20,849 nucleotides of DNA. Source: a virus. Made by a program: the position numbers and the translations under genes. Where the stretch lies: IMG/VR virus record IMGVR_UViG_3300036835_000152; one strand, written 5' to 3'. Numbering within the stretch: position 1 is the stretch's first letter; each line of letters begins with the position of its first letter. The notes beneath the pieces are model-generated. The model did not search any database, was not told where the DNA came from, and saw nothing but the letters and a program-made list of their open reading frames with translations. Of the stretch, positions 2,288-20,849 are shown piece after piece.

Positions 2288-3589
2288 TCAGCCGCTCGGC
2301 CACTGATCCCAGGTGATCCCCGCCGGGTAGGTGGGGGCCAGGTAGTTCCACCGCAACGATGCCGGTACGTCGGCCCAGCGGCCTTGGTTGGGCCGGGGGC
2401 CCCAGCATGTCGCGTCGTCCCAGGTGCCGGGTGCGGTGTCCCACGTCATTGCCGCGTCCACCTCATCCCATTGGGGTGGGGGTGCGGTCCGGCAGTACCC
2501 CGACACCGCCAACTCGATCAGGTGGCTGTCCCCGGTGATGGTCTCCTGCCAGCCCTCAACCCACAGCACCGCCGTGGTCGGCGCATCCCCGGCGTACGGC
2601 AGGCCCTCTAACTGCACCAGTTTGGTCATGTCCAGGGTCAGCAGCGCCCAGGTTCGGTCTAGGTCCAGGTCCAGCACGTCGATCGGCAGGCTGGCCATGA
2701 TCCACACCGGCTCGGAGTTGCGGACCAGCAGCAGTGACGCCATGGCCTGCGCGTCCGCGGCGGCCGCCAACTCGGTGGCCGCGGTGTACTGATACCGGCC
2801 GAACGCGGCTACCGAGGTCTCATCGGAGGCCAGGTAGCGCGGTTGCTCCCCGCCTTCCGGGGTGGGCCCGTAGCCGATCGACACGTCATTGACCAGCCCT
2901 TCCAGGGTGCGCCGCCAGGTGGGGGTTACTGACAGGTCGCAGGCATCCAGCACCAGCGCCACCACCGACGAATGCCGCCACAGCGCGTCACCATAGGAGA
3001 ACCAGCCGGTCCGGCCCTCCCACAGCACCCCACCGGCGGACTCGGCTACCGAGTGGATCAGGTCCAGCGCGGGCTGGCTGTCCACGTCGCGGGGCAGGAT
3101 CTGCACGGTGCCCGGGTCGGTCAGATACCAGGGTTGCTGTCCTTGGGTATACCCGGCTTCTTTCAGGATCCGGGACACCCGCTTGCCGTCGAGTTCCTGC
3201 GACCACGGTTTCGCGCCGACGACACGGCGCCCGAGGTCGGCCATCGCGGACACGGCGATGATCTGCGCCAGCACCGCGTTGGGGGTGTCCTCGTCGGCCT
3301 CGTCCCAGCCGATCGACACGTCGGTGACCTTGCCCGCGAACCGGGTGGCCCGGCGGCCTGCGGTGTCGTCTACGGATATCTGGACACCCCAGCCGATATC
3401 CAGGCCGGGCGGCAGTTGGTCAACGGTGCTGTCCAGGGACAGGTCCAAGGTGACGGTCATGGCCTCGGGCTGGCTGTCGGCGTCGTCGCGGCCGTACTTG
3501 ACCGAGATCGTGTCCACCAGGCAGGCGTAGTTGGTGGCCGGGGCCTGCCCCGGCGGGTACAGCCACACATTCCAAGTCCCGGCGGTCAT
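2288..3589 (-). CDS. Minor tail protein, distal-tail (Dit)-like (433 aa)
   Basis: ATGA overlap with the tape measure stop, which is the canonical position after the TMP. The N-terminal beta-rich region resembles siphovirus tail-family proteins. Assigned by synteny and general sequence character. Confidence 0.65.
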   Translation of the reverse strand: MTAGTWNVWLYPPGQAPATNYACLVDTISVKYGRDDADSQPEAMTVTLDLSLDSTVDQLPPGLDIGWGVQISVDDTAGRRATRFAGKVTDVSIGWDEADEDTPNAVLAQIIAVSAMADLGRRVVGAKPWSQELDGKRVSRILKEAGYTQGQQPWYLTDPGTVQILPRDVDSQPALDLIHSVAESAGGVLWEGRTGWFSYGDALWRHSSVVALVLDACDLSVTPTWRRTLEGLVNDVSIGYGPTPEGGEQPRYLASDETSVAAFGRYQYTAATELAAAADAQAMASLLLVRNSEPVWIMASLPIDVLDLDLDRTWALLTLDMTKLVQLEGLPYAGDAPTTAVLWVEGWQETITGDSHLIELAVSGYCRTAPPPQWDEVDAAMTWDTAPGTWDDATCWGPRPNQGRWADVPASLRWNYLAPTYPAGITWDQWPSG

Positions 3590-6010: not shown

Positions 6011-6382
6011 CTAGGCCCCTTCCACGGTCCCGATGATCCGGACCAACTCGGCCCGGTAGTAGTTGATCCACACGCCCTCGGTGTCCTCCGCGGCCGGGCG
6101 CAGGTAGGGCTGTGCCGCGATGTGGTGGCCGGGCCACCCGTACTCCTGCACCCCGGCATAGACCCGGCTCGACGCGGCTTCCGCGGTGGCGCCGGTGTGG
6201 CTGGCCCGGATCGACCCGGCCAGCGCCCCGGTGTGCTTCGGGGCCCGGCCTTGGGCCCGGACCCGGATCAGGTTGGCGGCCTGCTCGGTGGCGTTGTCCA
6301 TGTGCGCCAGTTGGTCGGCGGCACGGTGCAGCGTGGCGGCCAGGCGTTCCCGGCCGACCACCTCCGCTACCTGTCCGGTCAC
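6011..6382 (-). CDS. HK97 gp10-family head-tail/neck protein (123 aa, GTG start)
   Basis: GTGA overlap with the upstream stop. Motif RAPKHTGALAGSIRA...YAGVQEYGW...AQPYLRPA is characteristic of the HK97 gp10-like family. Confidence 0.75.
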   Translation of the reverse strand: MTGQVAEVVGRERLAATLHRAADQLAHMDNATEQAANLIRVRAQGRAPKHTGALAGSIRASHTGATAEAASSRVYAGVQEYGWPGHHIAAQPYLRPAAEDTEGVWINYYRAELVRIIGTVEGA

Positions 6383-6855
6383 GCGGGCACCGGCTCGGCC
6401 TCGGGCTCGGCCTGCGTCCCGTTCCCGGCGGCCTGCGACCCGTAGGTATAGGCGGGCTTCCCGACGATCGTGAACTCGAAATCCGAGGTCATGGTTTCGG
6501 TGGTCTCGTCGCCACCGAAATCGAGCGGGTCGATCACCAGGGTGCCGGTGGCTGTGGTGCCCGCGTCGGTGTTCGGGGTGAACGTGAACGGTTGCTCGGT
6601 GCCGGGCGCATCCTGCGACAGCGCGAACAGTCCGGCCGGGTCGTCCACGTCGGTATCGACGTTGCCGGACAGGCTGTAGGTGTAGGTGACCGCGCCGGGC
6701 CGGACGGTGCCGCACAGTTTCGTGGTCGAGTCGCCCTCGTCCTTGTCGGCACTGATCGTCGCGTTGTTCACCAGGCAGGACACGTCGATCTCGGTCCCGG
6801 TCTCCCCGATCGTCAGGGTGCCCGGGCCCAGGGGGTAGGTGTCGCCAGCGGCCAT
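6379..6855 (-). CDS. Major tail (tube) protein candidate (158 aa)
   Basis: Strong AGGAGG RBS. Beta-rich, T/D/G-rich sequence typical of actinophage major tail proteins (GTLTIGETGTEIDVSC...YTYSLSGNVDTD...FTFTPNT). Its position before the gp10-like gene is atypical. Confidence 0.55.
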   Translation of the reverse strand: MAAGDTYPLGPGTLTIGETGTEIDVSCLVNNATISADKDEGDSTTKLCGTVRPGAVTYTYSLSGNVDTDVDDPAGLFALSQDAPGTEQPFTFTPNTDAGTTATGTLVIDPLDFGGDETTETMTSDFEFTIVGKPAYTYGSQAAGNGTQAEPEAEPVPA

Positions 6856-7580: not shown

Positions 7581-8813
7581 CTACTTGCTGGCGGACTTGG
7601 CCGACGCGCTAGCCGCGGAGGTGTCGCCGCCGAGGCCCGAGATCGGGGTGAACAGGTCCGGCTTGGTGTTCAGGAACGCGCCGTACCCGGCGTAGCCGAC
7701 CAGTTGCCCGAGCACGTTGGGCTCGTCCACGTACAGGAACCCGTCCACGTCCTCATACCACTCCAGATAGGACGAGACACCGACGATCGCGGTCCCGGCG
7801 GTCAGCCACGGATCCACCACCAGGCGCAGGCCCAGCGGGTTGCCCGCGGTGGCGGTGGGGGTGACCGACGGGAACGCGGGCACGCCGTTGTCGTTGGTCA
7901 TGGAACCGAGCGCGCCCCACACGTCGGGGGAGGCCCACATCGTGTCGGGCAGCGGGGCGCCGTCCGCGGTGCCCATGATCTGCGCGGCCGCCTCAAACAC
8001 GGCCGCCCGGACCCCGGCGCCGTCCGCGGTGGCCGCGGCCACCGGCGGGTTGGTGATCGATGCCAGGAACTGCGCTACCGCGTCCTCGTCGGTCGCCTTG
8101 GCGTACTCGTGCCCGAAATCTGCGAACAGAATCTGCATGATCGCGGGCTCAGACCACTTGATGTCTTGCCGCGACACGTTGAGGTGCCCGGCGTAGGTGG
8201 TCGCCGTCACCGGCAGTTTGCCGACCTTCAATTGCCGGGATGCGGTCTCGGCCTTCTCAGCCGGTTGCTTGTCCACCGCGACGTGTTGGGTGATCGTCGG
8301 CCGGTCAAACGATCCGGTGGGCAGCGTCCGGTTGGTGATCGACCGGATGAACGGCCGCTCGTTCCCCACCGCGGTGATCACCGGCCCGAGGATGGGCCGC
8401 GGGATCAGGCCCGGGTTGTCGGCGGTGGTCTGATGCGCGGTGGCCCGGGCGATGCGCTCCCCGGCGTCCTTGTCGCCCTTCATGGCCCGGATCACGGTGA
8501 CCGCGTAGTCCCCGGCGGTCGGGAACATGTCTTCCAGGCTCGGCGGGTCCTCCGGTGCGGCCCGCTCGGTCCGCGGCACGGTCCGCACCGAACGGCGCAA
8601 CTCGCGCACCCGGTCGGTCTGCTCGGCCAGGCCGGTGTAGTGCTCGATCGCGGTTTGGAGTTCCGCCAGCCGGGTCCGGTCCCGGTCAACCTGCTGTTGC
8701 TCGGCGTCGGTTACGTCGCGGTCCTCGTCGGCGGCCCGCTGTACCAGGGTCTCGATGCCCTCGGTGATCTCGTCGTACTGATCGTTCAGCCGGTCCAGGT
8801 AGGTGGTGGGCAT
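7581..8813 (-). CDS. Major capsid protein, HK97 fold with an N-terminal delta/scaffold-like coiled coil (410 aa)
   Basis: The first ~100 aa are a charged coiled coil. They are followed by an HK97-family core (PGLIPRPILGPV...FIRSIT...GSFDRP...YAGHLNVSRQDI...VDPWL...). Confidence 0.92.
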   Translation of the reverse strand: MPTTYLDRLNDQYDEITEGIETLVQRAADEDRDVTDAEQQQVDRDRTRLAELQTAIEHYTGLAEQTDRVRELRRSVRTVPRTERAAPEDPPSLEDMFPTAGDYAVTVIRAMKGDKDAGERIARATAHQTTADNPGLIPRPILGPVITAVGNERPFIRSITNRTLPTGSFDRPTITQHVAVDKQPAEKAETASRQLKVGKLPVTATTYAGHLNVSRQDIKWSEPAIMQILFADFGHEYAKATDEDAVAQFLASITNPPVAAATADGAGVRAAVFEAAAQIMGTADGAPLPDTMWASPDVWGALGSMTNDNGVPAFPSVTPTATAGNPLGLRLVVDPWLTAGTAIVGVSSYLEWYEDVDGFLYVDEPNVLGQLVGYAGYGAFLNTKPDLFTPISGLGGDTSAASASAKSASK

Positions 8814-8847
8814 AGCGCGACCCGTCCTAGGTGTGGGGATTCCTAGG

Positions 8848-8930
8848 CCGGGTGGCGGCTTGCGATCTACGGACCCCGGGTGGCGGCTCGGTGGCCGGGT
8901 GGCGGGTGAACGTCGCGCCGGGTGGCGGCT
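8848..8930. repeat. Four direct copies of CCGGGTGGCGG(C/G)T in the leader upstream of the capsid gene
   Basis: Copies at 8848-8860, 8876-8888, 8895-8907 (one mismatch) and 8918-8930. An adjacent CCTAGG-N10-CCTAGG hairpin lies at 8826-8847. Confidence 0.85.
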
Positions 8931-8946
8931 CTCCTGCGCACCGACG

Positions 8947-9312
8947 TTACGCCGGGTCGCCGGGGTCGTCTAGGGCCTCGCCGATCCGGGCACCATTCGC
9001 ACCAGTAGCGTCACGGTCCTGACACTGTTGGCACGCGGCCATGCCGCCACAAGTACAGCCGTCCTCAATCGCCGTGACACCGGGCGGAATGACACGCTCC
9101 CATGGCTCGCCCGGTTTGCGGCGTGCGAGCGTGATCCGGTCGGGCGCGTACTCGCGTGCGGCGTCGTCCGCGTCGCGTTGTGCCTGTTCCCGTTGGGTTC
9201 TGCCGTTCCACCGCTCCGAGACGGACCCGTCGCTGAACATGACGCCATAGCGGTAACCGTCCGGCGCGAGGTAGTTCCGGGGCGCGTCTTTCTCGGCGGT
9301 GTGGTCCGGCAT
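8947..9312 (-). CDS. Hypothetical protein (121 aa) with a Cys-rich C-terminus, orphan in the head module
   Basis: ORF with lower GC and more A/T-ending codons than its neighbours. Contains CTCGGMAACQQC. No recognisable family. Confidence 0.55.
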   Translation of the reverse strand: MPDHTAEKDAPRNYLAPDGYRYGVMFSDGSVSERWNGRTQREQAQRDADDAAREYAPDRITLARRKPGEPWERVIPPGVTAIEDGCTCGGMAACQQCQDRDATGANGARIGEALDDPGDPA

Positions 9313-9321
9313 CCCGCCACG

Positions 9322-10047
9322 CTAGGGCCTCAGTCGGAACCGGGCCAGTAGCGCCCGGTGGTCCGAGTGGGTGCGGATCGTCCAGGCCCGGTCCAGCCGG
9401 ATCCGCGGGTCCCGCTTCCACCACACGTAGTCAACCGCCCGGCGGCCGTGGGTGGGCAGCCAGCCGCGGGCCCGGTGGGTGTTGGTCCAGCCGCGGGCGT
9501 ACAGCGGCCCGAGGATCCCGGTGTGGTCGGGCTCGGTGTTGAAATCCCCGACGATGAATCTCAGCCCGTACCGGCCGTCCACAGCGGCCGCCAGCCGCCG
9601 GACGTGCCGCACCGCCACCGCATGCCGCCGGGGCCGGTAGGACGACGGCACCAGGTGGGTGTTGGCCACCACCCGGGAGCGCCACAGCATCCCGCCCATC
9701 GCGTATTTCGGTTTCGCGGTGCTCGGCCCGTTCCCGGGGCCCACGTAGGTCCGCGGCAGCAGCGGTTTCCCGAACGGGTGCCGCATGGCTACCGCCCGCG
9801 GGTTCCACACCAGCGGGGTGGCGGACTGGCCGCGCAGACCCCGCCCGGCCTGCACCCGCCACCCGGCGGCCTTGGCGGTGGCCACCAGGCCGGGCCGGTC
9901 GCCCCACTCCTGCGCGCCGATCACGTCGGCGCGGCGCATGATCTGGCGCAGGTCCTCCCGGGTGCCGTGCGCGCCGGGGTTCCAGGTGGCCAGCACCAGC
10001 ACCAGCGGGGCCAGGTGCCGGACTAGCGCCGGACCGACTCCAGCCAT
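9322..10047 (-). CDS. Endonuclease/exonuclease/phosphatase (EEP, DNase I-like) family enzyme (241 aa)
   Basis: Full EEP motif set in order: LVLATWN, VIGAQEW, ANTHL, GDFN, VDYVWW, SDHRAL. The start is taken at ATG 10047. The upstream part of the 404-aa ORF overlaps the protease in another frame. Confidence 0.85.
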   Translation of the reverse strand: MAGVGPALVRHLAPLVLVLATWNPGAHGTREDLRQIMRRADVIGAQEWGDRPGLVATAKAAGWRVQAGRGLRGQSATPLVWNPRAVAMRHPFGKPLLPRTYVGPGNGPSTAKPKYAMGGMLWRSRVVANTHLVPSSYRPRRHAVAVRHVRRLAAAVDGRYGLRFIVGDFNTEPDHTGILGPLYARGWTNTHRARGWLPTHGRRAVDYVWWKRDPRIRLDRAWTIRTHSDHRALLARFRLRP

Positions 10048-10595
10048 GCGGCCAGCGCCTCGCGCCGCGGCGTCGGTGACGGCGCCACGGTCAGGGTGTG
10101 CTCGCGGGCCACCAGCACCCCGGCCCCGGCGTACTGAGGTGCCGCGGTGGCCGCCACATGGGACAGCCCGCACTGTTCGCGCCACACCACCCGCTGCCCG
10201 TCGCCGCGCGGCACCGAGCGGGACCGGTACACCCGCGCGGACACGCTCCAGCCGGTCAACTCCCCGGCCCGGGCGGCCTCCGCCTGTGGATGCCCGCGGT
10301 CGATGCGGAACGTCGGATACAGGCCCTCGGCGGTCTCCTCCAGCGCGACACAGCGACCGAGGTACCGGTCCCCGTCGTCCCCGACGTGCCCGAGCATCAG
10401 GTTGACCCACCGGCCGCCCTTGGTGCAGTCCCGGGCGAACGCGCCGGGGGTGAACGCCTCCAGGTAGGTCTCCCGGCCGTCGTCGGTCACCTCCTGCGGT
10501 CGACTGTACGGCACGGCCAGGCCGTAGACGGTCCACCCGTCGCCTTGCGGTTCCAGCGCCGGGGCCGCCCGTTCGATGATCAACTCATCCGGCAT
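10023..10595 (-). CDS. HK97-family prohead maturation protease (190 aa)
   Basis: YLEAFTPGAFAR...VNLMLGHV and a downstream S-containing core match the HK97 prohead protease pattern. Follows the portal gene with an 11-nt overlap. Confidence 0.9.
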   Translation of the reverse strand: MPDELIIERAAPALEPQGDGWTVYGLAVPYSRPQEVTDDGRETYLEAFTPGAFARDCTKGGRWVNLMLGHVGDDGDRYLGRCVALEETAEGLYPTFRIDRGHPQAEAARAGELTGWSVSARVYRSRSVPRGDGQRVVWREQCGLSHVAATAAPQYAGAGVLVAREHTLTVAPSPTPRREALAAWLESVRR

Positions 10596-11835: not shown

Positions 11836-12045
11836 TCACCGCTTCCGGTTCTTGCGCAGCGACGGGTACCGCTTGGTGACCGCGGCCCGGACAGTCTTGG
11901 CCGACCCGGCGGTGTCCCGGCGCGCCGAGTAGGCGAGCGCCGCCCGGGCCCGGGCCTTGGTGTCGATCGGGTACTTGCGTTTCGACGGCAGCGCGAACGC
12001 CGACCTCGGCAGCGCCTTCCGGCGCTTGGCGCTCAACCGGCCCAT
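11836..12045 (-). CDS. Small basic protein (69 aa) with an LPRSAFALPSKRKYPI motif
   Basis: ATG at 12045 overlaps the upstream stop. The stop lies 4 nt before the portal ATG. The LP.SAFA...RKYPI...A..AL motif recurs in small phage head-module proteins. Confidence 0.6.
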   Translation of the reverse strand: MGRLSAKRRKALPRSAFALPSKRKYPIDTKARARAALAYSARRDTAGSAKTVRAAVTKRYPSLRKNRKR

Positions 12046-12407
12046 GGCGATTCTGAGGCCCTTTCAGGATCCCGGTGGGCAGACATACCGGGGTGGGGCT
12101 GTACGGCCGTCCTAGGCGCCTCTGCGACAGCGGGAATGGCCGTTCTACGGTCCTGCCTCCCCGCCGTGGATACGTGCCCGTGCCAGATACCGCGGTCGTC
12201 GGCCCACATGCCCAGCGCCGTCATTTCCTCTAGGGTCCGGCACCGGCGCAGGCCCTCGGGCCAGTACGGGCCGATCCGGTGAGCATCGCTCGGTCTCGTG
12301 CTAGCGAACGTCCGGTGACATTCGGTGCAGTGTTCTTGCCTGCCCCGGAACGTCGCGCCGCACCCCGCCCGGCCCGAACACATACCCGGTGCGCCCATGG
12401 CGCCCAC
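12033..12407 (-). CDS. Zinc-binding protein resembling the FDXHR family (about 121-124 aa)
   Basis: CSGRAGCG...HCTECHRTFASTRPSDAHR...RRC pattern. GGGAAGG RBS (complement of 12411-12417). Start is either GTG 12407 or ATG 12398. Confidence 0.6.
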   Translation of the reverse strand: MGAMGAPGMCSGRAGCGATFRGRQEHCTECHRTFASTRPSDAHRIGPYWPEGLRRCRTLEEMTALGMWADDRGIWHGHVSTAGRQDRRTAIPAVAEAPRTAVQPHPGMSAHRDPERASESPWAG

Positions 12408-12424: not shown

Positions 12425-14473
12425 TCAGAACACGTAGAACGGCTGTGGCGCCTCGGTCTCCGCCGCCACCACCGCCACCGCCCAGGCGGTCGCCTTCACC
12501 GCGTCACAGCGCACCCCCCGGTGCGCCGGGGCCAGGCCCCCGTCCGCGTGCGCCGCCCAGCGGGTGCCACACACCTGCCCGGCCACGTCCTCGTCGGGTG
12601 AGTGCACCAACCGCCCCGACCGGACCAGCGACCTCAGCAGCGCCAGGCCCCGGCGGGCCCGGTCCGGCGCCTGCACCACCACCTCGGGCCCCAGGTACCC
12701 GGCGGCCTCCGACGCCGACAGCGACGGTCCCAGCACCACCACCGGGCCGATCTCGCGGCGGCCGTCGCCACGCATCGACGCGCCCGCCCAGGAGAACGCA
12801 TCCGCCCGCGACCCGAACGCCGCCCCCCAGGTCAGGATCCGCCCATCCGGGAGCACGGTGGCGGCCGCCGCCGACGCGCCCCTCCCGTACCAGTCCTCCA
12901 CCGCCACCGCCACCGGACGGCCCTCCGACGGCGCCGCATACAGGTCCGCCGCCTGCGCCCACTCCTCCCGGGACACCAGCACCTCGGGGGTGGAGGTGGA
13001 CGGCACCCACCGGCGCACCGGCCACACGTTCAGGTACTGCGCCCGGAACGCCTCCACCGGGTCGTCCTCGTCCGGGTCCTCCGACGCGCCCGCCCGGGCC
13101 CGGCGCAGCCGCGCCTCCAGCAGCCGCTCCCGGGTCGGCGTCCAATGCGGGGATGCCTGCCGCCAGCCGATCCGGTCCGCCAGGTCCGCGTCCCGCGGCG
13201 CCGACCACTCCAGCAGCAGCGACGACGACGGCGAGGAATACCCGGCCAGCAGCGCCGCCCGGCGCACCGGCACCAGCGCGGTGGCCCGCCGGTGCGCCGT
13301 CGAGAACATCACCAACTGCGCGTTCGCATGCTCGGCCAGCGTCGGCTCCAGGCCGTCCTCCACCACCCCCGGCGCCACCTTCCACACCTCGTCGGCCAGC
13401 GCCAGCGTCGCCGAATACGAGTACACCGAGCCGTGCCCGCGCAGCAGCCACCGAGACCCGTCCGGGTGCCCGATCTCCTCCTCGCCGTTGGACTCCCGCA
13501 CCGGGTAGCCCTGCTGCCGCGCCCACAGCCGCGCCGGACGGGTCACCTCCCGGGTCACCTGCCGGTCCTTCGCGGTGTGCAGGATCAGTTGCTCCTCCCC
13601 GAACACCTCCGAGGCGTGCAGCCGCCACAGCGCCAACTGGCGCAGGAACACCGACTTCCCCACCTGCCGGGCCGTGGACACCAGCGCATCCATCCACACC
13701 AGTTGGCCCTCCGCGTCATGCTCCAGCAGCCGGGCGAACGCCAGCCGCTGCCACCAGCGCAGACCCCACCCCCGCTCCAGACACCACGCCACCGCCGCCG
13801 CCCCATGCGACCCCGCCGCATCCGGGTGCGGCAGCGACATCAGCCGCGGCCACGTCGCACTAGGCGGCACCTCCCGCAAATCATCGAGCCACGGCGACGA
13901 ATCCCAGACCGAATCCTCAGGACCCGGCGTAATCACCGGCGGCTCGATATCGGTCGGCTCGAATTGGTCTATGGGGGAGGAATTGTCAGCCGGAGCGCCC
14001 TGGGAAGTCGAGGCCGCCGTCAAAAACCGGGCGCCGTTCTGCGCATTGTCGTCCACGATTTCGCCGCGTTGGTTGTCCCATTTCCCGGCTAGTGCTGCCT
14101 TGCCTGCGGCGTAGATCGCTTGGCTCAGTTCGCGTCCGGCTTTGCGGTTGCAGTGCGCATGGGCTGGCCGTATGTCGGGGGACCGGCCGCCGAGTGCGAC
14201 GGGTTCGCCCACGTGGTCTAGGTCCCAGGGTTCCCAGGGTTGTACGGGGTCGGGGCAGCGGGGGCATGGCTGGGGCAGGCGTTGCTGCCAGCGGTTGCGG
14301 AGTTCGGCCCATTCTCGGCCGTTGATGGGTCGGCCTGCGATGACTCCGGATCCCATGGTTGCCGATGATGCTCCGGTTTGGCGGGCCTGTCGATTCTCAC
14401 AACCCATTATCCGATTCGACCGTGTAGTGCGTCGTCGCGCGCGAACGGTGACGGAACAGACCGCATCGACCAC
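12425..14473 (-). CDS. HNH endonuclease domain fused in frame to the terminase large subunit (up to 682 aa)
   Basis: N-terminal CPRC...WDLDHVGEPVALGG...AHAHCNRKAG (HNH, about 14135-14266). Then a Walker A STARQVGKS (about 13652-13672) and a terminase ATPase/nuclease body. No stop codon separates the two parts. The start is uncertain (GTG 14473, ATG 14407 or ATG 14356). Confidence 0.85.
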   Translation of the reverse strand: MVDAVCSVTVRARRRTTRSNRIMGCENRQARQTGASSATMGSGVIAGRPINGREWAELRNRWQQRLPQPCPRCPDPVQPWEPWDLDHVGEPVALGGRSPDIRPAHAHCNRKAGRELSQAIYAAGKAALAGKWDNQRGEIVDDNAQNGARFLTAASTSQGAPADNSSPIDQFEPTDIEPPVITPGPEDSVWDSSPWLDDLREVPPSATWPRLMSLPHPDAAGSHGAAAVAWCLERGWGLRWWQRLAFARLLEHDAEGQLVWMDALVSTARQVGKSVFLRQLALWRLHASEVFGEEQLILHTAKDRQVTREVTRPARLWARQQGYPVRESNGEEEIGHPDGSRWLLRGHGSVYSYSATLALADEVWKVAPGVVEDGLEPTLAEHANAQLVMFSTAHRRATALVPVRRAALLAGYSSPSSSLLLEWSAPRDADLADRIGWRQASPHWTPTRERLLEARLRRARAGASEDPDEDDPVEAFRAQYLNVWPVRRWVPSTSTPEVLVSREEWAQAADLYAAPSEGRPVAVAVEDWYGRGASAAAATVLPDGRILTWGAAFGSRADAFSWAGASMRGDGRREIGPVVVLGPSLSASEAAGYLGPEVVVQAPDRARRGLALLRSLVRSGRLVHSPDEDVAGQVCGTRWAAHADGGLAPAHRGVRCDAVKATAWAVAVVAAETEAPQPFYVF

Positions 14474-14517
14474 GTTCCAGTTTCCTTTTCCAGTTAGTTA
14501 CCGTTCTATCCGTATTG
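14474..14517. promoter_or_regulatory. AT-rich segment (about 41% GC) with two TTCCAGTT direct repeats
   Basis: TTCCAGTT at 14475-14482 and 14488-14495. This is the lowest-GC stretch I noticed in the window. It directly abuts the palindrome array and the HNH-terminase start. Confidence 0.6.
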
Positions 14518-14606
14518 GGGCCACATCCGTGTGGCCCTGAGGGCCACATCCGTGTGGCCCAGGGTCCACAGATTTGTGGCCCTGTAGGGCCACATCCGTG
14601 TGGCCC
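14518..14606. repeat. Array of four tandem 20-21 bp palindromes, GGGCCACA-TCCG-TGTGGCCC
   Basis: Perfect copies at 14518-14537, 14541-14560 and 14587-14606. One variant (GGGTCCACAGATTTGTGGCCC) at 14562-14582. Spacing is 21-25 bp. Confidence 0.95.
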
Positions 14607-14929
14607 TATCCCGGGCCTCGGACCAGCGGGAACGTGAACCGGTACACCGCCCGGTGGCCACCTCCGCCGGGGCCAATCTGCTCGATCACCTTGGCGTCCA
14701 CCAGTCCGTTGATCGCCCGACGTACGGCTTCCTTGGCGGTCGGGGTGTACTCGGGATATCCGAGCCATAGGGCCAGGTTCTCCCACCCGCCGTAGTAGAT
14801 CCCGGCCTCGGCCCGCTCGGTGTCCCGGTCCAGCGCCATGTCCGCCATGGCCCAGGCAACGATGCGCTCGGGGTGGGTCAGTTTGGGCCCGATCAGCGTG
14901 ACCAGGCGGAACATTTGGCGCCCCATCAT
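14606..14929 (-). CDS. Small winged-helix DNA-binding protein (107 aa). Candidate small terminase, or origin- or operator-binding protein.
   Basis: ATGA overlap with the upstream stop. WENLALWLGYPEYTPTAKEAVRRAINGLVDAKVIEQIGPGGGGHRAVYRF fits an HTH plus beta-hairpin wing. Its stop codon abuts the palindrome array. Confidence 0.65.
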   Translation of the reverse strand: MMGRQMFRLVTLIGPKLTHPERIVAWAMADMALDRDTERAEAGIYYGGWENLALWLGYPEYTPTAKEAVRRAINGLVDAKVIEQIGPGGGGHRAVYRFTFPLVRGPG

Positions 14930-15192
14930 CGGGGCCTCGGGCGGCGCATTCGCTCCAATTCGAGTGACCTGACCAGTAGGCAGCGTTCGCATAGGCCGCC
15001 GGGTTCGGGGTCGTCGGCGGGCAGCCGGGCGCCGCATATCCGGCACCGGTTGGGCATGTTGGCCCGGGCGGCGTGGAATTCCCGTACGGGCGCCCCGGTT
15101 TTCAGGTTGCGGCATTTCTCGCCGGGTTTCGCGTTGCACGCGGGGCAGGGGTGTCCTAATAGGATCCGGCGCCATTCAACTGGTATTCCCAT
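14926..15192 (-). CDS. Double zinc-ribbon protein (88 aa)
   Basis: HPCPACNAKPGEKC and CRICGARL...GGLCERC motifs. Tight packing with both flanking genes. Confidence 0.65.
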   Translation of the reverse strand: MGIPVEWRRILLGHPCPACNAKPGEKCRNLKTGAPVREFHAARANMPNRCRICGARLPADDPEPGGLCERCLLVRSLELERMRRPRPR

Positions 15193-15195
15193 GGC

Positions 15196-15642
15196 TTATC
15201 CGGGTGGTTGCGGCTCGGGCTCGGGTTGTCCGAGGGCTTGGTAGATCGTGGTCTGCCCGGGCGGCACGATGGGGGCTTCGGGGGGCCTCGGTTCGCGGCG
15301 CGGCACCTTGGACGGCCGCCGGGTGCGGTGGTGGGCGTAGTCGGTGGTGGCCAGGGTCTCGGGGTTGATGGATGCGAGCGCCAGGCGGCCTCGGACGGGC
15401 CGGGATGCGAGCACCGGTGCGGCCCCGGCGGCGTCGGCCAGGTCGGCCAGTTCGGCGCGTTCGGCGTAGGACAGGCGGCCGGATATCTTGCAGGACACGA
15501 TCACCGGCGGGTGTCCGGCGCGGAGTGCGACGAGATCGGCGGGCCCCAGCGATCCGGCGGAGCGGACCACCAGCCACCCGGCGTCGGTGAACACGTCGCG
15601 GGTCTGCCGCTCGAAGTAGTCGCCGCGGGTCCGGTTGCTCAC
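15196..15642 (-). CDS. Holliday junction resolvase, Hjc-like PD-(D/E)XK (148 aa, GTG start)
   Basis: GDYFERQTRDVFTDAGWLVVRSAGSLGPADLVAL...VIVSCK matches the archaeal-type Hjc resolvase motif order (E...D...xK). GTGA overlap with the RecT stop. Confidence 0.75.
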   Translation of the reverse strand: MSNRTRGDYFERQTRDVFTDAGWLVVRSAGSLGPADLVALRAGHPPVIVSCKISGRLSYAERAELADLADAAGAAPVLASRPVRGRLALASINPETLATTDYAHHRTRRPSKVPRREPRPPEAPIVPPGQTTIYQALGQPEPEPQPPG

Positions 15643-16691
15643 GGCGCACCCCCGGGCCCGTCGTGGACGTTCATGGTGCCGTCATCGTTGAGCGTGAAAT
15701 ACGCCTCGCCGGTGACGATCCGGTCGAGCGCCGACAGCACCCGGTAGCCGTCGTCGCGGGTGAGATCGTTGGTGGAGTCGATCCGGTGCCCGACGATCGC
15801 GGAGCACAGCGCCAGGCGTTCGGAGCGGGTCGCCACCGACCCCAGCACCTCCCCGAGTTTCGCGTGCAGCGCGCGCAGCGGCCGGACCCCGATGGGTACC
15901 GGCTCGGGCGGTGGCTCGCCCTCGGTGGGCGGCTCGTCGTCGGGCGGCTCGGGCAGCGGGGTGTCTTCCACCGCCGGGGTGGGGTCCATCGGCGCCGGGC
16001 GTTTGGGCGGCCGCGGGTCGTCGGTGGCGGTGCCGTACCGGGATTGGTCGGGCGGCGCGATGGGGGGGCGTTCGATCGCGGCGGGCTCATGCTTGCGCTG
16101 CCGCCTGATCGGGGCCCGCGGCTCGGGGTCGGCGGCCTCGGGGGCCACCTGATCCCAGCCGGGCCAGTCGGCGGCCTCCTCGGCCACGTAGGACAGGCCC
16201 TTCACCACGTCGGAGAACAGTGCTCGGGCGAGGTCCCCGGTGGCCCGGGCCAGCAGCATGGCGCGGGGGTACCGCTGCCAGTTGGGCCGGTTCAGCAGCC
16301 CGGCGGCGCGGGCCATGTCGATGGACCACTCCACGACCATCCGCTCGGACTCGGGGGCGCCGCGGCGCAGGCCCGCGACCCGCACCCGGGTGCCGGACAT
16401 TTCGAGCACGGTCAGGGTGTGCCCGTCGCGGAGGATCAGCGCCCGCATCAGTTCCGCGGAGGGTTGCGGGCGGCCCTCCACGACGTGGATCCCGGCGAGG
16501 GCTTGCATGGGCCCGATTCGCAACTCGTCGCCGTACATGATCGCGGCGGTGATCACGTCGGGCTTGCCGCGCATCGCAGTGGGCACGAATTCGGTGTTGG
16601 CGATCCGCTCGGCCAACTGGCTGGCGGGCACCAGCACCGAGGCCCAGCGGGCCAGGCCCGCGTCCGCGGGCTCGATCGTCGCCATGCTCAT
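15639..16691 (-). CDS. recT: RecT-family single-strand annealing recombinase with a Pro-rich linker and an extra C-terminal domain (350 aa)
   Basis: The start is set at ATG 16691 (ATGA overlap with the exonuclease stop). RecT-like core: GKPDVITAAIMYGDELRIGPMQALAGIHVVEGRP...EWSIDMARAAGL...NWQRYPRAMLLARA. The C-terminal ~90 aa form a separate helical domain. Confidence 0.85.
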   Translation of the reverse strand: MSMATIEPADAGLARWASVLVPASQLAERIANTEFVPTAMRGKPDVITAAIMYGDELRIGPMQALAGIHVVEGRPQPSAELMRALILRDGHTLTVLEMSGTRVRVAGLRRGAPESERMVVEWSIDMARAAGLLNRPNWQRYPRAMLLARATGDLARALFSDVVKGLSYVAEEAADWPGWDQVAPEAADPEPRAPIRRQRKHEPAAIERPPIAPPDQSRYGTATDDPRPPKRPAPMDPTPAVEDTPLPEPPDDEPPTEGEPPPEPVPIGVRPLRALHAKLGEVLGSVATRSERLALCSAIVGHRIDSTNDLTRDDGYRVLSALDRIVTGEAYFTLNDDGTMNVHDGPGGAP

Positions 16692-17485
16692 GCCGACACC
16701 TCGCCCTCGGACCAGTCGGGCAGCGGGGCGCCTACCGAGTCCCGGGCTTCCTTGGTGACCCATTCCGCGACAGCGGCACAGTGCAGGAACCGGCCGTAGG
16801 CGGCCTCGGAGGCGTTGACGGGCACCAACTGCACCCCATCGGGCCGGACCCACACGACGGCGGCCTCATCGGTGGGCGGCATCAGCAGCACCCGGCCGCC
16901 GATCTGGATGTGGGAGGCGTGCCGGTAGGCGGCCAACTGGAGTGAGTCGGTGTCCCGGACCCCGGACGCGGCTGTCTTGTAGTCCAGCAGCCAGCGGCGC
17001 CCGTCGCCCATGTCCGCGATCAGGTCGAGCCGACCGGCCCACCAGTGTGTTTGGTGGAACACGATCGCCTCGTGTACGACGGGCTCGACCCCGCGCGCGT
17101 CCAGGAACCGGGCCAGGTGCCCGGCCATGTCCAGCACCTCGGGCGGCAGCGGGGTGCCGTCGTCGTCGCGGTCCCCGACCGGCTCGCCGTACACCAGCCG
17201 CTCGGCCACGGTGTGCAGTTGCCTGCCGAGATCGCCACCCGCGTCCCGTACCCGGTCCGGCGCCTTGGCCGCGGTCTCGATCCACACCTGTTCCCCGAGG
17301 CTGGCCAGGCCCTCGGCGTTGGTGGCGCACCATTGTGCGGCGGTGCGGGCCGCCCAGGCGATCAGGAACGGCTTCCCGATCGCCTTGTTGAGAATCGTGG
17401 TCACCCCGGGGCAGTAGCGCCCGTCCAGTGAGTAGGTGTGGCGGCGCTCGTTGAACACCACCCGCTCAGTTGTCTGCTCGATCAT
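16688..17485 (-). CDS. PD-(D/E)XK exonuclease (RecE/RecB-like partner of RecT, 265 aa)
   Basis: HTYSLDGRYCPGVTTIL N-terminal motif, GRLDLI...LLDYKT (D...D/E-x-K) and QLAAY (QxxxY). Confidence 0.8.
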   Translation of the reverse strand: MIEQTTERVVFNERRHTYSLDGRYCPGVTTILNKAIGKPFLIAWAARTAAQWCATNAEGLASLGEQVWIETAAKAPDRVRDAGGDLGRQLHTVAERLVYGEPVGDRDDDGTPLPPEVLDMAGHLARFLDARGVEPVVHEAIVFHQTHWWAGRLDLIADMGDGRRWLLDYKTAASGVRDTDSLQLAAYRHASHIQIGGRVLLMPPTDEAAVVWVRPDGVQLVPVNASEAAYGRFLHCAAVAEWVTKEARDSVGAPLPDWSEGEVSA

Positions 17486-17798
17486 CGGTCTGTGCCTCCA
17501 CCCCGTCGTCGGGGCTGTCGTCGGGCACGGCCAGACCGAGAGGCAGCGGATCCCCGGCGGGGATCACGTCGGGCCCACGCTCGGCCTGCCGTAGAACATC
17601 GTTGATCTGCTCGGCGGACATGCGAACCATGCCGCCGATCAGGTAGTGCGGCCACTGGCCGCCGTGGATGGTGCGCTGCCGTACGTACTTCTCGGAGACG
17701 TGCAGCAGTGCCGCGATCTCGGGCACCCGGAACAGTCGGAGCGTTCCCGTCCGCTCACCGCTCCCGGGGTCGAAAACCGGGTAGTCGTCAGGGGCCAT
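17466..17798 (-). CDS. MerR/excisionase-family HTH protein (110 aa), first gene of the long minus-strand operon (Cro- or Xis-like)
   Basis: ATG 17798 with a GGGGAGG RBS. LFRVPEIAALLHVSEKYVRQRTIHGGQWPHYLIGGMVRM matches the HTH_17/excisionase pattern. Confidence 0.75.
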   Translation of the reverse strand: MAPDDYPVFDPGSGERTGTLRLFRVPEIAALLHVSEKYVRQRTIHGGQWPHYLIGGMVRMSAEQINDVLRQAERGPDVIPAGDPLPLGLAVPDDSPDDGVEAQTDDRADN

Positions 17799-18030
17799 GG
17801 TGCCGCCTCCCCGAGACACTGGCCGAACACCACCAGTACCGCTCGGCCGCGGTGCCCGCAATCGCCCGGAACGGGGGTGGCGGGCTGGCCCTCGGTGCGC
17901 TAGCCGCTCGGCGGCCGCCGCGGGCCGGGTGTGGCCCGGCGCCGTGTTTCGCTCCCGTAGCGCGAACCTGTCGCGTTAAGGTGCCGCGTGTCGGCGCCCA
18001 ACCGGGGCGCCCACTCGGGGAGGAAACACG
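17799..18030. promoter_or_regulatory. Divergent intergenic control region (putative lysis-lysogeny switch)
   Basis: 232-bp gap between divergently oriented genes. Contains a hairpin CGGGCC-N6-GGCCCG (17921-17938), GGCGCC-N7-GGCGCC (17993-18011) and a TAAGGT -10-like hexamer (17977-17982). No promoter could be assigned with confidence. Confidence 0.45.
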
Positions 18031-19405: not shown

Positions 19406-20821
19406 CTACCGGCGCCACTCGATGATCAGGTCCCGGTCCCCGTCGAACGGGGTGTGCCGGGTCGGCGCGCCGCGCAGCGCCACCCGGGCACACAGGTGGT
19501 CGATCACCGCCCGCTTGCGGGCCAGCGTCAGGCCCGCCCACGCGGCCGCGGCACCGGCGCCGGTGAGGTCGGCCAGCACCTCCACCGGCTTGGCCACCTG
19601 CTCGCGGGCCTCCGCGATCCGGGCCTCCAGCGCCGCCAACTCGTCGCGGTACACCGCGGCGGTCATGTCGTACTCGGCCTCGGACACCTCCCCGCGGGCC
19701 TTGCGGGCCACCTCAGCGGCCCAGCGGGCGCCCATCGCGGTGTGGGCGGCCTCCAGGTCCGCCAGGCCTTCAGCGGCGCTGTCGTCCACCAGCGCCCCGG
19801 CCGCGTCGGCCCGCTCCAGCCGCCCGACGATCACGCCCTCCAGGTAGGCATCCACCTCATCGGTCTGCCGGTAGCAGTGACGGCCGGTGGCGCAGGCGTA
19901 GGCCCGGGACTCGGGGGCGTTCTTGGGGCCGGGGCGCCCGCGCAGCACCTCCCCGCACTCGGCGCAGGTGGCCAGGCCCGCGGCCAGGTAGCGCCGGGCG
20001 TTGGTGTACGACGTGCGCCGGGCCGGGTCGGTCAGGATGAACTGCACCCGCTCCCAGGTGGTCCGGTCCAGCACCGGCGGCCAGTCGGCGGCACCGAGGA
20101 TCTGGCCGCGGTGCACGCGCAGGCCCGCCAGGTGCGGGCGTTTCATCATGGTGCCCAGGTTGGGGCCCGCCCAGCGGGCGCCCTCGGGGGTCGCCACCTC
20201 CCGGGTGTTGAGGTCGCGGGCGATGCTGGCCAGGGTCTCGCCGCCGATGATCCGCTCGGCCACCTCCCGCACGATCGCGGCCTCGGATGCGCGGATCTCG
20301 GTCATGCCCGGCTCATACCCGAACCGGCGCCGTCCGCCGTGGAACTTCCCATGCTCGGCCAACTGTCGGTGCCGCCTTCCTGCGCGTCGGGACTTCTGAT
20401 CGGACTCGGCCGCGGCCAGCGCGGACTGGATCCGGAGCATGGTCACGTCGGTGACCTGTTGGGCGCCGGTCCACAACTCGGTGCCGGTGTGCTTGCACGC
20501 GGACCACAGCCGCTCCAGTTGGATGGGCTGGCGGGTGAACCGGTCGGCGTGCCACGCGATCACCGCCCGGTACTGGCCGGACGCGATATCGGCCAGCAGC
20601 CGCTCGAAATCGGGCCGGGTGACCGACTCGTCCCAGGCCGAACGGTTGTCGCCGTAGTAGACGATCTCGGCGCCCGGGTGGGCGCCCGCCATGGTGGCGG
20701 TGTTGTCCTCATGCTGGCGCTCGTTCGCCAGCGTCCACCCGGCGCCGTCGCCGGACCGCTTGGACAGCCGGGCGTAGGACGCCACCGGCCTGAGGTCGGT
20801 GGCGGTGGTCGTGATGGTCAT
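19406..20821 (-). CDS. int: Large serine recombinase (integrase, 471 aa)
   Basis: N-terminal resolvase catalytic motif ASYARLS plus RSAWDE...FERLL. Recombinase domain, then zinc ribbon CAECGEVL...YACATGRHC, then a long C-terminal coiled coil. Confidence 0.95.
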   Translation of the reverse strand: MTITTTATDLRPVASYARLSKRSGDGAGWTLANERQHEDNTATMAGAHPGAEIVYYGDNRSAWDESVTRPDFERLLADIASGQYRAVIAWHADRFTRQPIQLERLWSACKHTGTELWTGAQQVTDVTMLRIQSALAAAESDQKSRRAGRRHRQLAEHGKFHGGRRRFGYEPGMTEIRASEAAIVREVAERIIGGETLASIARDLNTREVATPEGARWAGPNLGTMMKRPHLAGLRVHRGQILGAADWPPVLDRTTWERVQFILTDPARRTSYTNARRYLAAGLATCAECGEVLRGRPGPKNAPESRAYACATGRHCYRQTDEVDAYLEGVIVGRLERADAAGALVDDSAAEGLADLEAAHTAMGARWAAEVARKARGEVSEAEYDMTAAVYRDELAALEARIAEAREQVAKPVEVLADLTGAGAAAAWAGLTLARKRAVIDHLCARVALRGAPTRHTPFDGDRDLIIEWRR

Positions 20822-20849
20822 GCGGATCCTTCCACGGTGGCCCCGCGGT
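20723..20849. repeat. Second copy of the 127-bp terminal overlap (identical to 1-127)
   Basis: Exact identity with the window start. Confidence 0.97.

Follow-up and report, generated by a model that had tools for sequence, protein, structure and literature searches.

The locus described here raises the question of whether an HNH endonuclease and a large terminase (TerL), read in one continuous frame, form a single packaging enzyme, and where the DNA ends that such an enzyme would make lie relative to its own gene. In HK97-like terminases, the HNH protein is known as an accessory subunit in its own right, and its cooperation with the TerL nuclease at the cos site is unsettled. In HK97, the HNH protein gp74 binds TerL and stimulates cos cleavage, and in circular DNA its gene is next to those of the terminase (PMC13595911).

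The stretch of viral DNA that we analysed (the window, 20,849 nucleotides) is a complete genome of ∼20.7 kb, assembled as a circle, and belongs to a small temperate siphovirus of Actinomycetota whose head and packaging module is HK97-like. Downstream of the terminase lies the HK97-type portal (PF04860; 10585–11832, minus strand), which, with an S78 protease (10023–10595) and an HK97-fold major capsid protein (7581–8813), makes up the rest of the HK97-like head module; a tRNA search found none. The resemblance to HK97 that had been read from the sequence is borne out by this portal and protease, and by HK97 TerL as the best structural match of the terminase. The family comprises hundreds of 21–26-kb contigs from soil metagenomes, with integrated copies in one Nocardioides genome (sp. 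zg-1228) and two contigs of metagenome-assembled genomes (MAGs); short contigs from MAGs of Acidimicrobiales and Actinomycetes also turned up in the same family search. No relatives were detectable among 50,697 deposited phage genomes.

The open reading frame (ORF) occupies positions 12425–14473 on the minus strand and runs for 682 codons from a GTG at 14473, stop included. Its translation contains zero internal stops, and the HNH-like motif (C70-x2-C73, D86-H87, H105-x2-C108-N109, in ORF numbering) has a common frame with the Walker A motif of the TerL ATPase (R269-Q-V-G-K-S274). The sequence-only reading that both motifs share a single stop-free frame therefore holds, with the 682-codon ORF intact. 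Translation most likely begins at ATG 14356, which would give a protein of 643 residues (∼70 kDa) and leave the first 39 codons of the ORF probably untranslated. These 39 codons (14357–14473) have a GC3 of 0.54, homologues in the alignment begin ∼12 residues ahead of an R-x-W-x2-L-R motif, and a promoter-like sequence (TCGACA-17-CATCAT, 14393–14365) sits immediately 5′ of ATG 14356. ATG 14407 is an alternative start, and a terminator-like site is absent from 13800–14750. The product given here by the public gene caller is only 471 residues long, starting at M212; across relatives, called lengths range from 450 to 700 residues, with M212 or other internal starts picked in many. An AlphaFold (AF2) model of the 643-residue protein reached a pLDDT of 87.5.

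The HNH (ββα-metal) nuclease domain is encoded by 14129–14311 on the minus strand (ORF residues ∼55–115). Its earlier placement at about 13,950–14,400 was too wide, as the core lies at ∼14129–14311 and 13919–14128 encodes a linker. Neither did the Pfam HNH and Terminase families delimit the two parts: no model matched the window protein at E ≤ 1, nor at E ≤ 10, and Pfam on the N-terminal part alone returned zero matches. The HNH identity of the window protein rests instead on a family profile compared with solved structures. Built from 14 homologues, this profile matched the HNH endonuclease 4h9d in the PDB (E = 6e-6), as well as the HNH domains of Cas9 (2e-4) and a group II intron maturase (2e-3), with the CxxC, DH and CN elements of 4h9d and Cas9 aligning with the family residues. 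The zinc-finger and active-site residues C70, C73, H87 (within D-L-D-H), H105, C108 and N109 are identical in all 15 sequences, giving the domain a D-H catalytic histidine, a downstream asparagine ligand and a flanking Cys/His zinc finger. PF01844 is present in several homologues of the domain, and the domain is modelled with a pLDDT of 83–97. By fold and motif, the HNH half is thus a predicted nuclease. The HNH domain had no tblastn match in 50,697 phage records; its initial alignment proved too diverse to search for loci, and a trimmed version recovered only 7 viral and 12 metagenome loci. Among the nearest relatives of the domain are stand-alone HNH genes, and in a second subclade a different HNH is joined directly, via a short linker, to the same TerL N-terminus.

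The linker DNA (13919–14128, minus strand; ORF residues ∼116–185) is variable and of low complexity, and its product is predicted to be disordered. It spans ∼70 residues here and 30–149 in relatives, and is poorly conserved. Residues 98–133 of the model (ORF 137–172) have a pLDDT below 50.

The terminase part begins with an N-terminal extension (13769–13918, minus strand; T-P-G-P-x-D-x2-W-D-x3-W-L ... W-P-R-x-M-S-x-P-H-P) that lies mostly 5′ of M212, is modelled confidently (pLDDT > 93) and contains the residues W190, W195, W208, P209, R210, M212 and P215–P217, all invariant in the homologue alignment; in the second subclade, the same motif immediately follows the HNH. The Walker A motif of the ATPase (13652–13669, minus strand) has its R, Q, G, K and S invariant across 77 sequences, its R-x3-K spacing matches R56/K60 of HK97 TerL, and both R269-x3-K273-S274 and the Walker B pair D361-E362 are invariant. 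In the RNase H-like nuclease domain (12428–12976, minus strand; ORF residues ∼500–682), D527 is invariant and R655-x-D657 conserved, with D657 found in at least 90% of sequences. The HK97 nuclease residues are D302/D388/D471, compared with D527 and D657 by presence alone. PHROG 9 (TerL) matched residues 205–525 (E = 1.7e-21), and the best PDB match of the AlphaFold model in Foldseek was HK97 TerL (6z6d; E = 9e-20 over 520 columns), with further matches to the nuclease domains of G20c, P22 and Sf6 TerL. The TerL assignment rests on PHROGs and predicted structure, as there is no Pfam terminase match. A family sequence profile searched against PDB sequences found no solved terminase, and tblastn of the whole protein against the 50,697 phage records found no match.

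The fused arrangement is conserved. All 14 full-length homologues (45–52% identity) read HNH-linker-TerL, the two domains occupy one ORF at 17 genomic loci (relatives 40–57% identical), and the one-frame arrangement also occurs in an NCBI Nocardioides genome. The single frame is not a sequencing indel, as the 17 relatives keep it: their linkers contain 0 stops in frame, compared with 42 and 51 when read in the two alternative frames. A start codon (ATG, GTG or TTG) is missing between cos and the conserved W190 in 9 of the 17. The fusion is not universal, because one more distant relative of ∼21 kb keeps an HNH gene, a 76-residue gene and a 426-residue gene apart, the last of these presumably encoding TerL. 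Given this separate-gene relative and the stand-alone HNH relatives, a deep-time fusion of once separate HNH and TerL genes is plausible.

The evidence that cos lies inside the gene comes from the ends of related contigs. Around 45 of 80 related IMG/VR contigs start inside linker-coding DNA, their TerL frame staying open up to the contig end, and 23 of these begin 10–16 nt ahead of a C-rich run. Left ends fall 10–16 nt (polished) or 16–22 nt (3′-tailed) upstream of this C-run, and right ends 24–27 nt (polished) or 32 nt (tailed) past a T-run, with five metagenome contigs stopping 24–27 nt after the T-run. The sequence GA(A/T)A(C/T)CCCCCC adjoins the left end in dozens of related contigs, and in three contigs TerL stands at one end and HNH at the opposite end. 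The layout of T-run, ∼44 nt and C-run is conserved in 15 relatives and the window, a T4–6 run lying 39–45 nt upstream of the C-run. Contigs bounded by both ends measure 21–24 kb, which is full genome length.

Several observations identify these as physical DNA ends in relatives. Near-identical pairs of contigs are broken at the site in one member and continuous through it in the other (L029/L007, L046/L049 and L054/L027), and an exact-DNA search for the right-end partner of L029/L007 found only L007. In L104–L107, which come from four SRA runs, the right end is fused directly to Illumina adapter, as is the left end in L108. The ends also bear non-templated tails of purines or pyrimidines that vary between near-identical genomes, and we take these low-complexity tails to be 3′-tailing products of library chemistry. 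End positions scatter by a few nucleotides, and two off-site breaks lie nearby (L050/L036; L055/L090, 15 nt away). With termini fixed relative to the T-run and C-run, the relatives use cos-type packaging.

The window assembly is circular and runs through cos, which is placed in it solely by positional homology to these relatives. The T-run (TTTTT; 14022–14026, minus strand) encodes the ‘invariant’ F150, the C-rich run CCTCCCCC (13973–13980, minus strand) encodes S-S-P in the linker, and the cosN cleavage region is predicted by position at 13990–14002 on the minus strand, across codons ∼158–162 (Q-G-A-P-A), within linker-coding DNA. Staggered nicks probably leave a 3′ overhang of ∼9 nt, where both length and polarity are read from one contig pair and the gap seen in end-polished libraries. 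The 9-nt CCCGTGCCG occurs at both ends of contig 3300037119_003173, and merging these keeps HNH and TerL in frame. With cos at this predicted position within the ORF, virion DNA would carry the gene in two pieces, made whole again when the genome circularises. Release of a free HNH by frameshifting at the T-run was considered and rejected, as the out-of-frame TGA that follows the T-run in the window is not conserved in L007, L027 and L049.

These findings bear on the base composition of the gene. A compositional seam exists as described from the sequence, with a sharp drop in GC3 over the first ∼200 codons: in 30-codon windows, GC3 is 0.50–0.80 over codons 1–200 and 0.87–1.00 from codon 200 on, averaging 0.72 in the HNH, 0.72 in the linker and ∼0.95 in TerL. 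Its interpretation as a separately acquired HNH module that was then fused is not supported, because the drop across HNH and linker is common to 16 of the 17 relatives, other small genes of the window (a Zn-finger ORF and an FDXHR ORF) also have a GC3 of ∼0.74, and cos sits at the seam's centre. Conservation of the T-run and C-run as DNA accounts for two features of the otherwise variable linker, its ‘invariant’ Phe and its Ile/Leu-Pro/Ser-Pro. The low GC3 probably arises from such dual coding, with the cos elements constrained as DNA and the protein needing just an open frame and flexibility; the codons that encode cos coincide with the disordered stretch of the model. A cis-acting DNA site can in this way overlay a disordered protein linker.

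No small terminase (TerS) accompanies this gene in recognisable form. Pfam and PHROGs searches of ∼30 ORFs covering the ∼20.7-kb genome matched no canonical TerS, in agreement with the sequence-only reading. In most relatives the portal directly follows TerL and cos directly precedes it. The FDXHR ORF (12033–12407) and a DUF6582 ORF (11836–12045) were each considered as TerS and rejected, as most relatives have nothing between TerL and portal. Upstream of the gene, four tandem 21-nt palindromic repeats (GGGCCACA-N4/5-TGTGGCCC; 14518–14607) recur at a spacing of 22–24 nt between the HNH-TerL gene and a gene directly upstream of them (14606–14929, minus strand) for a 107-residue winged-helix (MarR/HTH_36-like) DNA-binding protein. 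Analogous sets of 2–3 palindromic repeats, of other sequence and with a 23–24-nt spacing, lie 5′ of HNH in L006, L007, L009 and L086. The repeats may be a late-operon operator or an array that binds terminase or cos-accessory proteins. The 107-residue protein of the window itself had no family match and a word-indexed homologue search with it returned only itself, whereas an exhaustive search found 129 homologues, of which a few match MarR_2/HTH_36 and none has a terminase link; the family has a MarR structure match at E = 2e-3, and homologues of the gene occupy the equivalent position in L007 and L009. From its sequence, this protein is only a weak candidate for a DNA-recognition partner, the sole one at the locus, and is not recognisable as TerS. 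Packaging of cos DNA in this family seems to proceed with no TerS that can be recognised.

Taken as a whole, we favour a model, with a probability of roughly 70%, in which a ∼70-kDa single-chain HNH-TerL carries cos in the DNA of its own linker and its gene is split in virions. The model takes the conserved single frame, the domain identities and the physical ends in relatives from observation; the exact nicks in the window, the length and polarity of the overhang, translation as one chain and the catalytic division of labour are its predictions. One chain of ∼70 kDa would comprise an N-terminal HNH, a flexible linker of ∼70 residues, the family-specific extension, the TerL ATPase and the RNase H-like nuclease. 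Virion DNA would have the TerL part of the gene at its left end and the HNH part at its right end, and the whole gene would exist only once the cohesive ends have joined, or in concatemers or the prophage, which would be the templates for late expression. By analogy with gp74 and TerL of HK97, cos may be cut jointly by the TerL nuclease and the HNH tethered to it, after which the TerL ATPase would package the DNA. Every virion would contain an essential late gene in two physical parts, to be reassembled by end-joining. More tentatively, and as a possibility that we consider doubtful, this may be a TerS-free cos family in which the single chain itself recognises cos and makes both nicks, its target lying in its own linker DNA. 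Coupled transcription and translation could then deliver the nascent enzyme in cis to its own cos, each cut would cost the terminase gene one of its templates, as a form of built-in feedback, and the gene would stay silent on injected DNA that has not been joined.

Four other explanations bear on the ORF and its ends. The frame could be real and yet yield two proteins, an internal start such as M212 also or mainly producing a ∼50-kDa TerL, with the upstream frame giving either a minor full-length product or an HNH whose tail has no function. M212 is indeed invariant and gene callers pick internal starts in many relatives, many TerLs function without an attached HNH, and the HNH of HK97 is a separate protein. 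However, the ∼25 residues before M212 (including W190, W195 and W208-P-R) are invariant and confidently modelled and could not be translated from M212, nine of the 17 relatives lack a start between cos and W190, none shows a Shine-Dalgarno-like sequence, and the sole GGAGG-like stretch in the window is 30 nt away from the M212 codon on its upstream side. The HNH frame, moreover, never closes before TerL at the 17 loci, and the second subclade links HNH to the same TerL N-terminus by a short linker. We therefore regard two proteins as unlikely. That the single ORF is an indel artefact merging separate HNH and terminase genes could draw on the atypical composition, on homopolymers (T5, C5) prone to indels and on the public call of 471 residues, but at least 17 relatives with independent assemblies have the single frame, as do the 14 full-length database proteins and the NCBI Nocardioides genome, and it is always kept despite differing linker lengths; as judged from these sequences, an artefact is effectively refuted.

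The other two explanations accept the fusion. In one, the contig ends are assembly break-points in a hypervariable, low-complexity linker and the true cos or pac lies elsewhere, for example at the 14518–14607 repeats, which resemble terminase-binding arrays; no other part of the gene is as variable or as odd in composition as the linker, and two contigs break near rather than at the canonical position. The breaks, however, keep a fixed distance from the T- and C-runs across divergent genomes and numerous samples, and adapters and non-templated tails sit exactly there on both sides, which break-points would not yield; near-identical sequences assemble through the site elsewhere, and contigs bounded by both ends have the 21–24 kb of a whole genome. 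We consider break-points very unlikely. The remaining explanation makes the HNH a recent mobile (homing-type) module inserted beside the terminase and fused with it, its low GC3 marking it as foreign. Terminase genes are often adjoined by HNH homing endonucleases, this domain has stand-alone homologues, and GC3 is 0.72 in the HNH against ∼0.95 in TerL. Against this, the GC3 offset in 16 of 17 relatives at 40–57% identity implies that it is old and maintained, other small window genes have an equal GC3, and the HNH sits at the same place family-wide with invariant active-site residues, in a context (HK97-type TerL, PF04860 portal, S78 protease, HNH beside cos) that is that of a packaging-associated HNH. 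A recent insertion is accordingly highly improbable. Under the single-chain model, the conserved covalent joining of HNH and TerL argues that both nucleases act as one unit on one site, and a single-chain enzyme would be a simpler system for biochemistry and structural work.

The HNH-TerL fusion with its cos is a variation on HK97-like, HNH-assisted cos packaging. In headful phages, pac lies within terminase genes: that of P22 in gene 3, that of P1 in pacA and that of SPP1 at gene 1. The present family resembles these in that the cleavage site is embedded in a terminase gene and the enzyme cuts its own gene, yet theirs is the small-terminase gene and terminal redundancy leaves every virion a whole copy, whereas here cos lies in the large-terminase gene and each virion would carry it in two pieces. 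With HK97 (gp74 HNH, gp2 TerL and gp1 TerS), the phage shares the TerL fold, the PF04860 portal, the S78 protease and the HK97-fold capsid. In both, cos is flanked directly by the HNH on its upstream side and by the terminase on its downstream side, an order observed in the relatives and predicted for the window. HK97 cos ends carry 3′ overhangs (PMC9410871), and the cohesive ends here probably do too. Unlike in HK97, the HNH is covalently joined to TerL in a frame that crosses cos, rather than being a separate polypeptide, and no TerS lies between cos and TerL or is recognisable elsewhere in the genome.

A literature search for descriptions of HNH-TerL fusions or cos-spanning ORFs found nothing relevant. 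Predicted structures indicate that HNH-TerL single chains are already public in UniProt, uncommented: A0A6J5RK67, A0A6J5QUV0 (‘HNHc domain containing protein’) and A0A6J5T5X6, all from uncultured Caudovirales, align in BFVD with the 643-residue model over ∼650 columns (E = 2e-35 to 6e-28). They too join HNH and TerL in a single chain, with only 17–25% identity to the window protein. The nearest structural neighbours from cultured phages are the TerLs of Gordonia phage Gustav and Mycobacterium phage SkinnyPete (E ∼1e-26, 19–20% identity), which are 511–517 residues long, align over ∼515–530 columns, presumably lack an HNH and lie beyond tblastn detection. Gene callers and genome-end conventions truncate or split the HNH-TerL gene, and its NCBI annotation reads ‘hypothetical protein’.

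The ORF at 12425–14473 on the minus strand is a single stop-free frame of 682 codons counted from its GTG, the start used for residue numbering here. As the sequence-only reading had stated, it carries an HNH-like motif (C70-P-R-C73, D-L-D-H87 and H105-A-H-C108-N109) in frame with a Walker A motif, A-R-Q-V-G-K-S (269–274). The public gene call on this contig is 471 aa only, starting at M212. Sigma-70-like hexamers (TCGACA-17-CATCAT; 14365–14393, minus strand) end 8 nt before ATG 14356, the probable start, and match weakly (9/12); if this promoter were real, the HNH-TerL mRNA might perhaps be leaderless or nearly so.

No Pfam model matched the window protein at E ≤ 1. PHROG 9 (large terminase) matched residues 205–525 with E = 1.7e-21, and a profile made from the N-terminal domains of 14 homologues matched, among solved structures, the HNH nuclease 4h9d (E = 6e-6), the Cas9 HNH domain (2e-4) and a group II intron maturase HNH (2e-3), with its CxxC, D-H and C-N positions aligned with those of solved HNH nucleases. 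An AlphaFold2 model of the 643-aa form (from ATG 14356; model residue + 39 gives the ORF residue), calculated from a 77-sequence alignment, had a mean pLDDT of 87.5. It displays a confident HNH domain (model residues 10–95), one long disordered stretch (98–133, equivalent to ORF residues 137–172) and a confident terminase from model residue 140 on. Against the PDB, the model came closest to the HK97 large terminase (6z6d, E = 9e-20); the terminases of D6E, T4 and Sf6 ranked next.

The two domains are joined well beyond this genome. A search for homologues yielded 646 proteins. Many are 590–706 aa long and span 85–94% of the query, and a Nocardioides sp. zg-1228 protein is among these. In 14 homologues at 45–52% identity, the alignment runs the full length through HNH, a variable linker and TerL, with invariant HNH residues, ATPase motifs and an N-terminal terminase extension (W190, W195, W208-P-R-x-M212 and P215-H-P). 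At the DNA level, HNH and TerL share one ORF in 17 genomic loci whose sequence is unbroken. The linker DNA of these loci holds no in-frame stops, but 42 and 51 stops in the two alternative frames. This comparison bears out the continuous HNH-terminase ORF first proposed from sequence and rules out an artefact as its origin; that the fusion is real and conserved is almost certain. Between the cos site and W190 there is no in-frame ATG, GTG or TTG in nine of the 17 loci and no Shine-Dalgarno-like sequence in any of them, so the conserved N-terminal extension could be translated only from upstream, as a fusion. Translation mainly as one chain is probable.

Contig ends place the physical ends of the genome within the linker-coding DNA in the window's subclade, a reading to which we give a probability of about 0.85. 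Of the 80 top-ranking related contigs in IMG/VR, 53 start (5′) within the TerL ORF, the frame of which stays open as far as the contig end; for ∼45 of them the start lies in the linker, 40–67 codons upstream of the W-P-R-x-M motif. For three left-end contigs (22,405, 21,279 and 24,090 nt), the opposite end was found as well; there the HNH half lies in a frame open to the end. A conserved C-rich motif, GA(A/T)A(C/T)CCCCCC (the C-run), lies 10–16 nt downstream of the start of 23 contigs from many samples. Three linear-end contigs are 95–100% identical to read-through contigs (L029/L007, L046/L049 and L054/L027), and all three pairs present the same arrangement: a conserved T-run, 30–31 nt, the break, 15 nt and the C-run. 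The spacing of T-run, 39–45 nt and C-run recurs in 15 relatives and the window. At right ends, five metagenome contigs stop 24–27 nt past the T-run, and in Logan assemblies from four SRA runs (L104–L107) the Illumina adapter AGATCGGAAGAGCGTCGTGTAGGG is attached at the end, 24–27 nt past the T-run; at the start of L108, adapter is attached 11 nt before the C-run. Two breaks lie off this position, one directly after the HNH motif (L036:3230 and the left end of L050) and one 15 nt downstream, within the C-run (L090/L055); both are probably ordinary assembly breaks.

About 20 other contigs open with stray purine-rich sequence, which is not the same even in near-identical genomes (L056/57/60, L079/80/81 and L030/31), and one right end, L091, carries a pyrimidine-rich tail. 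The tailed left ends are those of L008, L017, L021, L030–L034, L039, L044, L052, L053, L056–L058, L060, L065, L069 and L079–L081. These low-complexity tails resemble what we take to be non-templated 3′ tails from single-strand library chemistry, assembled onto true molecule ends; the adapter in the Logan assemblies L104–L108 sits at positions where other contigs carry them. L091 and L057, the one tailed pair that comes from a single contig, have CCCGTGCCG at both ends, and HNH and TerL stay in frame when the two are merged on these 9 nt. Right and left ends from end-polished libraries do not quite meet, leaving a gap of a few nucleotides. The shared 9 nt and this gap together point to a 3′ overhang of ∼9 nt, to which we give even odds. 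The cos ends of HK97 likewise carry 3′ overhangs (PMC9410871).

The window itself ends in an exact 127-bp terminal direct repeat (1–127 and 20723–20849), and is thus a circularly closed assembly, a complete genome of ∼20.7 kb with reads spanning the cos junction. Here the T-run lies at 14022–14026 and the C-run at 13973–13980, with a predicted nick region at ∼13990–14002 (codons 158–162), the likely position of this genome's ends. Read as codons, the T-run and C-run give the ‘invariant’ F150 and the linker's I/L-P/S-P motif. The nick region falls in the AlphaFold-disordered stretch and at the centre of a compositional seam that had been noticed earlier; the seam is real, with GC3 in 30-codon windows of 0.50–0.80 over codons 1–200 and 0.87–1.00 thereafter. 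Its interpretation as the mark of a separately acquired and fused HNH module was not supported. In 16 of 17 relatives, the HNH and linker have a lower GC3 than TerL (HNH/linker/TerL values of 0.48/0.59/0.80 in relative L014, 0.43/0.46/0.75 in L018 and 0.75/0.72/0.95 in the window), and other small window genes, the Zn-finger ORF (14926–15192) and the FDXHR ORF, have a GC3 of ∼0.74. The offset is old and maintained, and does not serve as evidence of recent acquisition in this genome.

A second subclade (L001–L003, L062–L068, L072–L076, L082, L084 and L085) has a different HNH variant, G-S-P-Y-G-P-A-H...C-H-x-C-G...E-L-D-H-V-P-P-L...C-C...C-x2-C, fused directly onto the same TerL N-terminus. Its members have the same cos motif and contig ends just upstream of the fused gene, with stop codons between, so cos inside the ORF is specific to the window's subclade. 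The order of HNH and cos is swapped between the two subclades.

The fusion is not universal, as stand-alone HNH proteins exist among relatives of the HNH domain. In a more distant relative of similar size to the window (the P0131 contig, JGI sample 3300047160, 21,466 nt) the genes are all separate, in the order HNH (113 aa), a 76-aa gene, a 335-nt gap, a 426-aa gene that is presumably TerL, portal, S78 protease and capsid. This layout may be the unfused ancestral arrangement, and the 76-aa gene might encode a TerS.

In HK97, the HNH protein gp74 is separate, binds TerL and stimulates cos cleavage, and in the circular genome its gene neighbours those of TerS and TerL, a placement that many phages conserve (PMC13595911; PMC9410871). 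The window system shares with HK97 the order HNH, cos, terminase and the TerL type, but departs from it in the covalent link between HNH and TerL, in a cos site that is translated within the linker, and in the lack of a recognisable TerS. No account of HNH fused to TerL, or of an ORF through cos, was found in a literature search. Two single-chain relatives are present in a viral structure library (A0A6J5RK67 and A0A6J5QUV0, ‘HNHc domain containing protein’, uncultured Caudovirales; alignments of ∼650 columns, E = 2e-35 and 6e-28), so the fusion as such was already public, without comment. Headful phages are known to have packaging sites within terminase genes, the P22 pac site in gene 3 being an example; there, terminal redundancy leaves a whole gene copy per virion. 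Hundreds of related contigs, many of 21–26 kb, occur in soil metagenomes, and integrated copies were found in Nocardioides sp. zg-1228 and two large MAG contigs labelled uncultured Actinomycetes and Acidobacteriota. Short contigs of Acidimicrobiales and Actinomycetes MAGs also carry the HNH-TerL gene, while 50,697 deposited phage genomes gave no match to TerL or to HNH.

PHROGs and Pfam identified a serine integrase (19406–20821), an excisionase-like protein (17466–17861), an exonuclease (16688–17485), RecT (15639–16853), a Hjc-type resolvase (15196–15642), a portal (PF04860; 10585–11832), an S78 protease (10023–10595), a major capsid protein (7581–8813), a major tail protein (6379–6855) and a tape measure (3586–5559). 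By this gene content, the window is a complete, very small temperate siphovirus genome with an HK97-like head module. Between the protease and capsid genes (8813–10023, ∼1.2 kb), no ORF has the genome-typical high GC3, and candidate ORFs 8947–9312, 9065–9424 and 9431–9907 have no PHROG match; a scaffold or decoration protein might be encoded there. A 404-aa ORF (9322–10536) overlaps the protease in another frame.

No window ORF matches a TerS family in Pfam or PHROGs, in agreement with the earlier remark that a small terminase is not recognisable; that TerS is truly absent, rather than unrecognisable, is possible but somewhat doubtful. TerL is directly preceded by the genome end in linear contigs and directly followed by the portal in most relatives, with nothing between, so the window's intervening FDXHR and DUF6582 ORFs were rejected as conserved TerS candidates.

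Upstream, a listed 189-aa ORF (14606–15192, minus strand) is probably two overlapping genes on that strand, encoding an 88-aa phage zinc-finger protein (PF24623; 14926–15192) and a 107-aa winged-helix protein (14606–14929) with 129 homologues of ∼100 aa. The proline/arginine-rich N-terminus of the 189-aa ORF comes from reading the zinc-finger gene in the wrong frame. A few of the 129 homologues match MarR_2 or HTH_36, the profile of the 107-aa protein weakly matches MarR structures, and the protein is a predicted winged-helix DNA binder. Between its gene and the HNH-TerL gene (14518–14607) lie four tandem 21-nt palindromes, GGGCCACATCCGTGTGGCCCT, spaced at 22–24 nt; L006, L007, L009 and L086 have two to three palindromes at the matching place, with the same spacing and a different sequence. 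Kept spacing with changed sequence suggests a co-evolving dimeric DNA-binding protein, and the 107-aa protein and palindromes may form a late-operon regulator or a cos-recognition accessory.
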